A stretch of DNA of 64,000 bases from an uncultured candidate division Zixibacteria bacterium (GTDB taxonomy: Bacteria > Zixibacteria > MSB-5A5 > GN15 > FEB-12), in contig CAWDXE010000003.1 in assembly GCA_963806185.1 (NCBI GenBank), positions 276,619 to 340,618 of the forward strand, read 5' to 3'. The notes below the pieces were generated by a model that did no database searches, was not told where the DNA came from, and saw only the letters and a program-made list of their open reading frames with translations. Shown here one piece after another: positions 1 through 4,477 of this stretch (the stretch's first letter is position 1; every line of letters starts with the position of its first letter). Both the position numbers and the translations under genes were made by a program.

Positions 1-542
1 CCCACGGAGGCCACCGATGCCGGATTGGTGCCATGTGCCGACTCGGGGATCAGGATCTTTGACCGATTTCGGCCCTTGTGCACATGATAGGCACGCATCA
101 CCAGAAGTCCGGCAAACTCGCCATGAGCGCCGGCTACCGGCTGAAGTGATATGTGCGGGAAGCCACTGACCTCGCTCAAGTACCGCTCCAGGTCCCACAT
201 TAACTGCAAACTTCCGGCCGAGGCCGAACAGGGGGTGAGCGGATGATGGTTGGCAAAGCCGCTATAGCTCGCCGCGACATCGTTGAGCTTCGGGTTATAC
301 TTCATCGTGCATGATCCGAGCGGATAGAAACCCTTGTCGATATGGTGATTCTTCACCGACATATTGACAAAATGGCGCATGACGGTCGGCTCGCTCACCT
401 CGGGGAGAGCCGCATCCTTGGCGCGACGGTATTTCTCCGGGATAGCGGAAAGAATATCCGCTTCGCCCTTCTTGGTCTCCGGCAAGGTGTACCCCTTCAA
501 TCCCGGGGCCGATTTTTCGTAAATCAAGATCTTTTCATTCAC
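1..542 (-). CDS. gcvPB: Glycine dehydrogenase (decarboxylating) subunit 2, N-terminal part; runs off the window
   Basis: Manual translation from GTG at 542 (GAGGA RBS): MNEKILIYEKS...GFYPLGSCTMKYNPK...SLQPVAGAHGE...PESAHGTNPAS, the standard GcvPB motifs. Confidence 0.95.
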   Translation of the reverse strand, partial: MNEKILIYEKSAPGLKGYTLPETKKGEADILSAIPEKYRRAKDAALPEVSEPTVMRHFVNMSVKNHHIDKGFYPLGSCTMKYNPKLNDVAASYSGFANHHPLTPCSASAGSLQLMWDLERYLSEVSGFPHISLQPVAGAHGEFAGLLVMRAYHVHKGRNRSKILIPESAHGTNPASVASV

Positions 543-581: not shown

Positions 582-1446
582 CTATTTCTTCTCATCCGCC
601 TTAGGCGGGTTCTTCCATTTCTCTATCTGTTTGGCGACCCATTCGATCTCATCCTTCTCATTCGGATAGCGCTCGGCGAACCCCTCGAAATGAGAGATCG
701 CTTTCGCCGTGTCGCCCATACGCACATACACGAGGCCAACCCATTCATCGGCATTCACGGCAAATGACGAGTTGGGAAAGTCCTTCAAGACGCCCTGGAA
801 CAACTCCAGTGCTTTATCATAGTTCTTCGCCCGGCGCTGCATGTCGGCGATGGCCATCCGACTTTCGCCCGCCAGAGAGTCCTTCTCATTGACCGCCACT
901 ACTCTGCTATACCAGGTCATCGCGTCGTCCGGCATGCCGCGATATTTGTACTTGTCCGCAATCTTGAACGCGAGCTCCCGGCTGGAGTCAGCCTTTGCTT
1001 TGCCCAGCAGGTCGTCGAGCGTGCCAACGCCGTTGCGGTAGTCCTTAATCGTTTGCAAGAACTCCGGTGGAGGCAAGTACCCGACGATCCGATCGATTTC
1101 ATTACCCTTGTTATCCATCAGAACAATGGTGGGATACGCGCTCACCCGATATTTCTGGGCGATTAGAGTATCCTTCTCGGCGTTAATCTTGGTCAGCACC
1201 GCCTCGTTCGAAAAGTAGCTGATATTGCTGGAGTCTACGAACACGACCGTGTCCATCACCTTGCACCAGCTTCACCACTCGGTGAAAAACTTCAAGGCCA
1301 TCGGCTGGTTTGCCTGTGCCGCCGCCTTCAGTCCCTCTTCATATGAAGTATAGTATTGCGCTTTGCCGGCTGTGTTGACCAATTCGGCTGTCGCCGTTCC
1401 GGCGAGCAGAAGTGTCGCCAGAGTCACTAATCCCGGTCGTCCGCAT
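582..1446 (-). CDS. Exported thioredoxin-like (UxxC) + TPR protein; putative selenoprotein
   Basis: ORFs 1272..1511 and 582..1259 join in frame across TGA 1272-1274 (KFFTEW-TGA-SWCKVMDT). AGGAGG + ATG at 1446 gives MRTTG.. if one extra base near 1432-1434 is removed. Corrected length is 287 aa versus 288 aa for the adjacent paralog. Confidence 0.8.
1227..1270 (-). promoter_or_regulatory. Candidate bacterial SECIS stem-loop
   Basis: Starting 18 nt after the TGA: GGACAC-GGUC-GUGUUC hairpin (1254-1239), with a lower GCUGG/CCAGC stem (1270-1266 / 1231-1227). The Cys paralog has GGACACCGUGACAUUG here, which cannot form this stem. Confidence 0.7.
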
Positions 1447-1513
1447 GCTGCCTCCTGTAGCGAAACTCGCCATCTTTGCTCTATACCCGCGAGCGGCGCG
1501 GGTGCTTTCATCT

Positions 1514-2380
1514 TTACGACTTCTTGGCGTCCGCCGGTGCCGGCGGATTCTTCAGTTTGTCGATCTGTTTCTTGACGTACCCGATTTCTTCCGAATTCGG
1601 ATACTTGGTCAGGAACGACTCCATCTGCTGTACTGCCGCTGTCGTGTCGCCCTTTTTCACCAGAACGAGGCCGATCCAGATATCGGCGTTTTCGGCAAAC
1701 GGAGTACCAGCGAAATCGGTGGCCATGGCGCGGAAGGCGCTGAGGGCACCGTCATAGTCTCTCTTCTGGCGAAACATCTCGGCCAGCGCCATCCGGCTCT
1801 CCCCGGCCAGCGAATCCTTTTCGTTGCCGGTGATCACCGTCTGATACCATTTCTTCGCATCAGTTTCGGCGCCGCGGTATTTGTACTTTTCCGCGATCTG
1901 AAACGCCAGATTGCGGTCGGCATTCGTCTTGGTCTGATTCAACAGGTCATCGAGCGTTCCTTTGCCGGCCCGGTAATCCTTCACCGTCTGCAGAAAGTCG
2001 GTCGGCGGCAGGTAGCCGACGATGCGGTCGATCTCGTTTCCCTTGCCGTCGACCAGGACGACTGTCGGATAGACGTTGACCGCATACTTCCTGGAGATCA
2101 GAGTATCCTTCTCCGCATTGGTCTTAAACATGACCATGTCGTTTGTGAAGTAGGCGATGTTATTGGCCTCTACCAATGTCACGGTGTCCATGACCTTGCA
2201 CCAGCTGCACCAGTCCGTGTAGAACTTGATGGCGATAGGCTGATTCTTTTGGGCTGCGGCCGTCATGGCCTCATCGAGATTGGTGTAATAGGGTGCGTGT
2301 CCGGGTTCGGAAACAAGTTCGGCCGATGCCGCACAGCAGAAGGTGAGCATCACCAGCAGAACCAGTGTCAACGTACGCAT
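1514..2380 (-). CDS. Exported thioredoxin-like (WCSWC) + TPR protein
   Basis: Signal peptide, KFYTDWCSWCK thioredoxin motif, YPT cis-Pro loop, IVGYLPP, and helical TPR/YbgF-like C-terminus. Confidence 0.9.
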   Translation of the reverse strand: MRTLTLVLLVMLTFCCAASAELVSEPGHAPYYTNLDEAMTAAAQKNQPIAIKFYTDWCSWCKVMDTVTLVEANNIAYFTNDMVMFKTNAEKDTLISRKYAVNVYPTVVLVDGKGNEIDRIVGYLPPTDFLQTVKDYRAGKGTLDDLLNQTKTNADRNLAFQIAEKYKYRGAETDAKKWYQTVITGNEKDSLAGESRMALAEMFRQKRDYDGALSAFRAMATDFAGTPFAENADIWIGLVLVKKGDTTAAVQQMESFLTKYPNSEEIGYVKKQIDKLKNPPAPADAKKS

Positions 2381-2411: not shown

Positions 2412-2787
2412 TCATTCTTCGTCTTCGTCCATCAGTCCTTCGCCCAGAACCGCATCAAGAATCGCCTCGGCGTCGTCACGGAACTCCCGGGGAACCAGAA
2501 CGGCCTGCCCGAACAGCGTTTGCTGGGGGAGCATCGGCGGCCGTGCTCTGTCCGCTATTGGCGAACTGGGCGGAGAGAATCATGCAAGGGATGTTGCTGG
2601 CGGTGAGGGCGTCGCGGGCTATGCCGGTTTGCACGTCATTGACCATGAACCCAACCTCGACCCAGGAGTCATCGGGAATGATCGCCGCCGTCTGGCGTGG
2701 TGACCGCTCCACCAACGGTCGATGGCACTCCGGACAGGTCATGAGACCGGCCTGATATTCATGGGAACATTGGGTGCAATATACCAT
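2412..2787 (-). CDS. Zinc-ribbon + DUF2007-like (PII-like fold) protein, frameshifted
   Basis: MVYCTQC...CPEC N-terminus. The C-terminus continues in another frame after the G-run near 2525-2529 (VLVPREFRDDAEAILD...EE*). Paralog of the next ORF. Confidence 0.65.
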
Positions 2788-2792
2788 CGACT

Positions 2793-3140
2793 TTACTCTT
2801 CCTTGGGCTGCCACTGCTCGCCGAGGGCCATGGCCAACAGCTCTTCAGCTTCCTCGGCTTGATCGGCCGGAACTGACACTTCAAACGCCGCCGATTCGCT
2901 GCGATAGATCGGGTTGAGCGGTAATCCGGCATTGCCGAAAAAGCCCGATCGCGACATCACAACGTTTGGTATCTCATACGAGGTCAGCACTTCACGGGCA
3001 AAATCGGCCGAGAATTTGTCCAATACGTATCCCAGCACAATCCACCCTTGTTCTTCACTATCGTCCATCGCCGTCCCGCAGACGTGACATGTGGTCGTCC
3101 CTTCTCGCCATTCGTTCTTACAGGCGGGACAAGACACCAT
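2793..3140 (-). CDS. Zinc-ribbon + DUF2007-like protein
   Basis: CPAC...CHVC, then A(D)FAREVLTSYEIP and EVSVPADQAEEAEELL, a typical DUF2007 pattern. Confidence 0.7.
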   Translation of the reverse strand: MVSCPACKNEWREGTTTCHVCGTAMDDSEEQGWIVLGYVLDKFSADFAREVLTSYEIPNVVMSRSGFFGNAGLPLNPIYRSESAAFEVSVPADQAEEAEELLAMALGEQWQPKEE

Positions 3141-4477
3141 TGTGCGCCAACTCCTTCAAGCCAACGACCAGGCGCGCCACATCGCCCGCAGTGCGCTTCT
3201 CGGTGGTCGCAACTATGAGACAATTCTCCAGACCAGGATACCAACGCCCGGCGTCGATTCCGGGCAGAATCTTCTTATCGCGAATCATTGCCAGGATAAC
3301 CTGCTCCGCGGGGACGGGGGTCCTCACCGCAAACTCCCTGACAAACGGCCCTTTGAAGTACAATTCGAAGCCATCCAGCTTGCCAATGTCCTTCGCTGCA
3401 TTCTGGGCGGCCTCGGCAGATAACAGGGCGACCTGCTTCAGCCCGGTCTTGCCCAGTAGGCTCATGTAGACGGACGCGGCGGTCGCACACAGAGCCTGAT
3501 TGGTGCAAATATTGGAGGTCGCCTTTTCGCGACGGATATGTTGTTCTCGAGTTTGCAGGGTCAGCACGAATCCGGTCTTGCCGTCTACGTCCTTGGTGCG
3601 TGCGGCCAGCCTTCCCGGCATCATGCGGACCAGCTCTTTCTTGATGGCAAAGAAACCAAGGAGGGGACCGCCGTACGATGGCGAAATGCCCAATGGCTGT
3701 CCTTCACCAAATGCGATGTCAGCACCGCAGTCAGCCGGCGTCTTGAGAATCGCCTGAGCGATCGGGTCAACGCTCATGATCAACTTGGCACCCACCTTGT
3801 GAGTGATGGTGGCGACTCGATCTATTTCCTCCAGCAGGCCAAAGAAGTTCGGCTGGCCGATCAGTACGCAGGCTGTGTTCTCATCCACCGCGTCTTCCAG
3901 TCGATTCAGATCAGTCAGACCGTCTTTCATCGGGACAGTCAGGATCTCAAACGGGCGGGCGGACAAATAGGTGTCAATGACCTGCCGATAGACCGGATTG
4001 ACGGTTGCCGATACGACAATTTTCTTGCGCCGCGTCACGGCATGGGCCAAAAGAACCGCCTCGGCCGAAGCCGTTGCCCCGTCGTAAAGCGAAGCATTGG
4101 CGATATCCATGCCGGTCAGCCGGCAAATATGAGTCTGGAATTCATAGATCGCCTGCAACGTGCCCTGCGCGACTTCAGGTTGGTAGGGCGTGTAGGCAGT
4201 CATGAACTCGGGGCGACCGATGATCGTGGCTAGCGCCGCAGGAATAAAATGATCATATACGCCGCCGCCGGCAAAACAGGTCAGCCCGCGTCTGGTTCTG
4301 CTCCGAAAGTTGCTTGATTTCATCGAGCAATTCCATTTCGGACAGAGCCGGTATGTTCAGGGAACGATCGAGACGCAGATTCCCGGGAATCGCCTCAAGC
4401 AAGTCCTCGAACTTCTTGACGCCGATCCGGCCGAGCATCTGCTGACGGTCCCGATCGGAACTCGAGATAAAGGCCAT
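3118..4477 (-). CDS. gcvPA: Glycine dehydrogenase subunit 1 (one frameshift near 4300)
   Basis: FAGGGVYDH, TAYTPYQPEVAQG, NASLYDGA, TLQTREQHIRREKATSNICTNQ. The N-terminus MAFISSSDRDRQQML is in ORF 4253..4477. Confidence 0.95.

Follow-up and report, generated by a model that had tools for sequence, protein, structure and literature searches.

Two catalogued selenoproteins come closest to the gene pair described here, the "thiol:disulfide interchange protein" (domain PF13098 with UxxC, representative WP_011366075.1) and the selenocysteine (Sec) form of thioredoxin (PF00085, UxxC), both of which are given in Table 1 of PMC13188914. Our family resembles them in that both domains score above cut-off, the UxxC falls at the nucleophilic position, and an in-frame bacterial selenocysteine insertion element (SECIS) is present. 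Going by the descriptions in that table, however, it is set apart by the addition of a signal peptide and, at the C terminus, a tetratricopeptide repeat (TPR) domain. The table, which covers 119 families, has no TPR-containing entry, and the accessible portion of the paper's text gives no match for "TPR," "tetratricopeptide," or "Zixibacteria." No TPR match was found in the 2022 review PMC9312934, and a literature search that reached neither subscription journals nor supplements returned no paper describing a thioredoxin-TPR (Trx-TPR) selenoprotein family. What we report is a phylum-wide, mis-annotated Trx-TPR selenoprotein, predicted to be exported, with a chemistry and a mode of decoding that are of known UxxC thioredoxin-fold kinds. 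Its combination of export signal, UxxC thioredoxin, and TPR is an architecture absent from the parts available to us of the 2026 catalogue, which covers 119 families of prokaryotic selenoproteins.

Three further systems are relevant for comparison. CnoX (YbbN) also joins an N-terminal thioredoxin domain to a C-terminal TPR domain, is of about 285 aa, and has a variable catalytic motif (PMC6282202 and PMC8129009, in their accessible sections). According to those sections it works with cytoplasmic GroEL/DnaK and TrxR, unlike the Trx-TPR family, which carries signal peptides, is only 15-17% identical to CnoX with a TM-score of 0.28, and has a Sec form. In place of the cytoplasmic location that is characteristic of CnoX, we found a hydrophobic leader in 151 of 151 copies (simple hydropathy scan plus inspection), many of them of the lipoprotein type. 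For the thioredoxin domain taken separately, the best structural matches are DsbH (2JU5) and DsbD-gamma. DsbH is a periplasmic reducing dithiol oxidoreductase (PMC5193440, from the part of that paper available); it differs from the Trx-TPR family in having no TPR domain and is 20% identical, and the two copies score 38 and 35 bits against the DsbH model NF043050, for which the cut-off is 190. Lastly, Methanococcus has Sec enzymes with selenium-independent back-up isoforms that are repressed when selenium suffices (PMC13044853, as far as its accessible text goes). The likeness is that a Sec enzyme and a selenium-free homologue occur in one genome. The differences, measured against the same portion of that text, are that here the two lie in one apparent operon, that no regulator is evident, and that the pair is rare in the lineage.

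The window (the whole stretch of 64,000 nt that was analysed) contains this gene pair near its start (Table 1). An earlier note, made from the sequence letters, had described two adjacent paralogues with a TGA on the first Cys of a CxxC motif and an open frame beyond it, and this description was confirmed: the Cys copy reads KFYTDW-C-SWC, the Sec copy reads KFFTEW-TGA-SWC, and 229 open codons follow the TGA. The two copies are 60% identical over 271 aa.

Table 1. Features of the Trx-TPR gene pair and its neighbours, in coordinates of the window
Feature	Positions	Strand	Remark
gcvPB, 5' part; downstream neighbour, starting 39 nt past the stop of the Sec copy	3..542	-	
Sec copy: signal peptide, thioredoxin (U-S-W-C), and TPR domain	582..1446	-	likely start ATG 1444-1446
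SECIS-type hairpin with 8-bp stem and, 23 nt past the UGA, the start of its 4-nt loop GGUC; -7.5 kcal/mol	1237..1256	-	
Predicted Sec codon: in-frame TGA where CxxC has its nucleophile	1272..1274	-	
GGG run, with a likely extra base that would put the signal-peptide frame out of step	1432..1434	-	exact place not fixed
Shine-Dalgarno-like AGGAGG ahead of ATG 1446	1451..1456	-	
Alternative in-frame ATG, 2 nt past the stop of the Cys copy	1509..1511	-	
Cys paralogue, 288 aa: signal peptide, thioredoxin (C58-S-W-C61, cis-Pro-position P105), and TPR domain	1514..2380	-	
Site in the Cys copy matching the SECIS-type hairpin; hairpin lost, -2.3 kcal/mol	2172..2191	-	
TGC in the Cys paralogue, same column as the Sec codon	2207..2209	-	
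Two zinc-ribbon/DUF2007-like ORFs of small size, with gcvPA on one side and the gene pair on the other; the second frameshifted	2439..3140	-	
gcvPA; upstream neighbour, one frame change	3118..4477	-	

The reading frame of the Sec copy needs some care. Its likely start and last sense codon span 862 nt, or 287 codons plus one base, which bears out the single indel counted in the earlier note. The protein is likely 287 aa long if one base near the GGG run is an assembly error, and an assembly indel is the simplest reading of the extra base in the leader. Over about 4 kb of neighbouring genes, comparison with relatives reveals 7 frame changes (accC 4, gcvH 1, gcvPA 1, zinc-ribbon ORF 1), so a single extra base in the Sec copy is what the assembly error rate predicts. 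These frame changes in accC, gcvH, gcvPA, and the second zinc-ribbon ORF lie between 2439 and 6423 of the window; apparent breaks also affect a pilT-like ORF, accB, and further ORFs as far as 9 kb. The alternative ATG is in frame without any fix and gives a protein of 309 aa that retains the hydrophobic signal stretch, so the Sec gene does not depend on the indel. Among read-derived contigs from small shares of four runs, no near-identical contig covered either the TGA or the GGG run, and one 151-nt contig matched 2141-2291 exactly. One read-derived piece does span the TGA; with 7 differences in 60 nt it probably represents another organism, and it was left out of the evidence.

As the earlier note had suspected, the Sec gene is hidden from annotation. 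Plain ORF calling splits it into pieces of 79 aa and 225 aa, and the database entry from the contig is a 224-aa piece (P0009). The problem is a general one: among the matches listed, 58 of 119 homologues start just past the catalytic position, and none contains U. The named homologues are labelled Zixibacteria and entered as "TPR protein" or "BamD." Because about half of the listed entries lack both the signal peptide and the active site, an annotation fix is due.

The genome has what is needed to read UGA as Sec. Profile searches place selA (498 bits), selB (330), and selD (390) above cut-off, and a tRNA-Sec (selC) with anticodon TCA is present. TGA is also the commonest stop (282 of 636 long frames), so there is no reassigned code in this genome. 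Among the relatives searched, selA is above cut-off in 57 of 61 genomes and selB in 56 of 61. The Trx-TPR gene itself occurs in 61/61 genomes of that search and in 151/151 genomes of a phylum sample. At the catalytic column, 151 copies from 136 genomes have TGA (83), Cys (65), Ser (2), or Gly (1), and TGA appears there in 15 of 19 families. It should be noted that this count leaves out a divergent paralogue in genome G036, single-domain thioredoxin matches, one further TGA copy (G131), and three fragments without the motif (the G159 upstream copy, G113 C41, and G057 C141). Both copies in the window retain all 27 of the columns with at least 80% conservation across rows; a comparison of the two gives a dN/dS of 0.19, with dS about 1.8, and the Sec copy matches the family consensus at 56 of 67 columns, which is the family median. 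The selenoprotein reading of the earlier note is thereby strongly supported on each of the points where it could be checked in the sequences: the selenium machinery is present, homologues carry TGA in the same column, and the second copy shows no pseudogene-like decay.

Downstream from the TGA lies a hairpin that satisfies the bacterial SECIS model of PMC13188914 (loop of 3-9 nt with G in the first two places, stem of 4-16 bp, 16-37 nt from the UGA, and minimum free energy of -7.5 or lower), although its energy is exactly at the limit. A hairpin of this kind is not diagnostic by itself. The folding energy of the region does not differ significantly from that of shuffled sequences (z of 0.04 and -0.63), and a loose scan of the genome for a UGA with hairpin and Cys motif gave 122 sites. 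The Sec reading relies on conservation of the hairpin among related copies, which are not independent, and not on the hairpin alone. The SECIS core is found in 29 of 29 same-family TGA copies versus 5 of 23 Cys copies. In the former, of 54 four-fold-degenerate third positions, the three with the highest conservation are those of the SECIS codons (29/29, 29/29, and 28/29; median 43%). The stem is 91% paired versus 27-49% when it is slid, and 16 cells have two-sided changes, at 3 pairs (0/500 shuffles); the kin behind these figures are not independent. Taking these lines together, we consider that the TGA is almost certainly decoded as Sec.

Five Cys orthologues keep a full SECIS core (L040, L048, L039, L259, and L256, in G024, G003, G029, G134, and G096, respectively), and these are likely recent Sec-to-Cys changes. 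Leftover SECIS elements in Cys genes have been reported for Sec-to-Cys conversions in the accessible part of PMC1794560, and the leftovers seen here match those cases. Families f3, f5, f7, and f16 each seem, by inspection, to have their own conserved sequence past the UGA. In f3 (L065-L068, L072, and L074-L077) there is a 7-bp stem with a CGUGAC loop, which we read as SECIS turnover within one gene family.

Most genomes have one copy, either Sec or Cys, and many have a single Cys copy despite the presence of selA and selB. A quick tree of 64 rows implies a minimum of 5 and a maximum of 16 changes of Sec/Cys state, with direction and order not assigned. Cys homologues are usually far more abundant than Sec forms, according to the available part of PMC13188914; contrary to that pattern, the Sec form is the commoner one here (83/151 copies). 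The frequent exchange between Sec and Cys in genomes able to make Sec, the five leftover SECIS elements, and the side-by-side occurrence of both forms in one genome offer a clean natural comparison of what a periplasmic protein gains from Sec relative to Cys. The same architecture occurs beyond Zixibacteria, in Calditrichota. Loci outside Zixibacteria were picked by the pattern WCSWC, so their motif counts are biased, and they were excluded from the counts. Feature matches in the ESM Atlas include same-architecture clusters, most commonly from Acidobacteriota, and should be treated as leads only.

With regard to the protein, the signal peptide, thioredoxin, and TPR domains proposed in the earlier note for the second copy were supported by the hydrophobic leader and by the Pfam order (Thioredoxin/Thioredoxin_2, then TPR). 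PF13098 scores 48 bits against a cut-off of 27, and PF00085 is also above its cut-off. Neither copy reaches the cut-off of any NCBIfam family, and the best selenoprotein model, TsoB, gives 60 and 62 bits against 805. An AlphaFold model of the Cys copy (pLDDT 93, pTM 0.86) has a thioredoxin domain that best matches DsbH (Z 16.1, rmsd 2.1, 113 aligned), followed by DsbD-gamma (Z 14.9), and a helical domain resembling BamD (Z 15.9, rmsd 3.6, 131 aligned) and YbgF/CpoB (Z 15.1). The fold, along with the W-C-x-W-C-type motif, suggests a reducing rather than an oxidising activity. The genome has three DsbD_TM matches above cut-off, one of which is a stand-alone, CcdA-like ORF of 248 aa. By a rough sequence pattern, lipoprotein-type leaders seem less frequent among Sec copies (17 of 83) than among non-Sec ones (36 of 68), a difference that is confounded by kinship.

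In the model that we favour, the protein acts in the periplasm as a reductase or isomerase that CcdA/DsbD recharges; its location, activity, and partners are our inference. In the Sec copy, SelB with Sec-tRNA would bind the conserved hairpin past the UGA and insert Sec, using the machinery found in the genome. The observed hydrophobic leader would direct the protein to the periplasm, where the U-S-W-C site would reduce or reshuffle client disulfides, and a membrane carrier of the CcdA/DsbD type, such as those detected in the genome, might then recharge it. The helical domain may dock clients, as its fold likeness suggests. Both copies appear to lie in one operon; when selenium is lacking, translation of the Sec copy would stop at the UGA and the Cys copy would remain, providing a passive, regulator-free back-up. 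Overall, we think it reasonably probable that the Sec gene encodes an exported periplasmic disulfide reductase selenoprotein, with a TPR domain that likely holds clients, and that the Cys twin is an intact duplicate that would go on functioning when selenium is short.

The Cys twin is a real, intact, and rare local duplicate, and it is possible that, as the earlier note suggested, it is kept as a back-up allowing selenium-dependent switching. Between 400 and 3300 of the window we found no sigma-70-like promoter and no terminator-like site on the - strand. As there is no promoter-like site between the copies, any selenium switch would be passive and act at translation. A G+C-rich inverted repeat follows each paralogue (1484-1504 and 558-576); because the T-run is on the + strand side, the scan does not count these repeats as - strand terminators.

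The strongest alternative denies that the pair is a selenium back-up: after duplication one copy lost Sec, a frequent event in this family, and dosage or a difference in clients led to both being retained. We regard this explanation as evenly balanced between right and wrong. It is favoured by the repeated changes of state on the quick tree and by the frequency of single Cys copies in genomes that have selA and selB, as well as by the divergence of the two copies (their identity and dS are given above). The tandem arrangement, moreover, is found in only four of 151 genomes and in mixed form (Cys then Sec here, Sec then Cys in G016, Cys and Cys in G100, and a pair cut by the contig end in G159), so that Sec and Cys forms do not occur together lineage-wide. 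Dispersed Sec and non-Sec copies are present in all 11 sampled f7 genomes and in G086. On the other side of the argument, the 15 genomes with two resolved copies comprise 13 with Sec and Cys, one with Sec and Ser, one with Cys and Cys, and none with two Sec copies, but 11 of the 15 belong to one family and reflect one inherited event, which leaves about five events, too few to test. A more careful tree of 25 rows is compatible both with the copies here being sisters and with a duplication shared with G016. This alternative is compatible with the Sec insertion, export, disulfide reduction, and client docking steps of the model.

A second alternative accepts the selenoprotein and questions its job: the protein might serve chiefly as a chaperone or scaffold of the envelope (CnoX's counterpart in the periplasm, or an adaptor like BamD/CpoB), with U/CxxC as an accessory that protects bound clients. 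We think this unlikely, although it is not without support. The gene persists in every genome of the phylum sample, even where the site is SxxS, GxxC, or CxxS. In the wider set, 80 of 88 copies keep U/CxxC, and eight are without one or both redox residues (CxxS 5, SxxS 2, GxxC 1), which implies that catalysis is not always required. Whole-length Foldseek searches rank YbbN/CnoX in the top three places (E 3.7e-9), CnoX has the same two domain types with a motif that varies from SxxC to WCGPC (PMC6282202, accessible text), and some of the truncated database entries are those named BamD. However, superposition on YbbN gives a TM-score of 0.28 with an rmsd of 22.8 (Z 13.5 and rmsd 16.7 in a separate structural comparison), and the low TM-score and high rmsd indicate that the domains are arranged differently. 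The large majority of copies keeping U/CxxC, and the retention of a Sec codon with its SECIS, which points to selection on catalysis, also argue against this alternative. Copies with SxxS, GxxC, or CxxS in the operon position are L191 (G086), L192 (G125), L239 (G109), the f9 loci, L175, and L187; G086 has, besides its non-Sec operon copy, a separate Sec copy elsewhere. A bolder synthesis would make the protein a phylum-wide core component of the envelope, a periplasmic Sec "chaperedoxin" uniting a Sec reductase with a BamD/CpoB-like domain for binding clients, and the hidden majority form in Zixibacteria; lineages that duplicate it would preferentially keep a Sec copy together with one free of selenium, the two buffering selenium supply from one mRNA with no regulator. 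We consider it doubtful.

The genomic setting suggests a third possibility. Wherever the contig permits, the order-level set has the Trx-TPR gene between gcvPA (plus up to two zinc-ribbon ORFs) and gcvPB; in the wider set 66 of 88 copies are in this position, and 7 more have one of the two flanks. Ribosome stalling at the UGA under low selenium could therefore be polar on gcvPB and tune glycine decarboxylase, given also the short distance to gcvPB (Table 1) and the presence of Rho in the genome. We consider this very improbable. Glycine cleavage is cytoplasmic, whereas the protein is predicted to be exported. Cys copies occupy the same slot, and four genomes (G062, G079, G111, and G087) have no copy in the 1.5 kb before gcvPB, where long gcvPA-like frames fill the space. 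In addition, 15 Sec copies are situated away from gcv genes, without a conserved gene among their neighbours, and none of 80 distant loci from other phyla has a gcv neighbour. Since we see no obvious role for an exported protein in a cytoplasmic process such as glycine cleavage, we read the position as operon hitch-hiking. The two zinc-ribbon ORFs (2476-2814 and 2793-3140, - strand) are related to each other and have an N-terminal CxxC, a weak DUF2007 match (E 8.5e-4), and a weak score with the model for the zinc-ribbon (seleno)protein DG (24 bits versus 130). One or two such ORFs accompany the Trx-TPR gene in most of the order and are absent in some members.

Finally, that the TGA reflects faulty sequencing, or that it arose by nonsense mutation in a duplicate undergoing decay, is a most remote prospect in spite of the error-rich assembly, the apparent frameshift in the leader of the Sec copy, and the lack of read cover over the codon, since TGA recurs in the same column of 83/151 copies with a co-conserved SECIS absent from the Cys twin (which rules out error or decay at the family level), and the consensus match and dN/dS also speak against it.

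Two genome-wide selenoprotein scans were swamped by chance and antisense frames, and only selD and the Trx-TPR gene were recognisable in them. The selD gene (G000:C1:546386, - strand; L012) is itself a selenoprotein gene, with a TGA in C-A-G-U-A-S-K and a hairpin loop starting 19 nt past the UGA. The divergent G036 paralogue (G036:C54, L078) has the motif UGSC, and two Fimbriimonadales loci (L117 and L155) have short thioredoxin-like frames with W-U-x-x-C. Weak matches were also seen to open frames of about 385-420 aa with one internal TGA (G001:C190, G024:C138, G036:C255, G041:C31, G050:C65, and G060:C13), and these may possibly represent a second exported thioredoxin-like selenoprotein family in the order.
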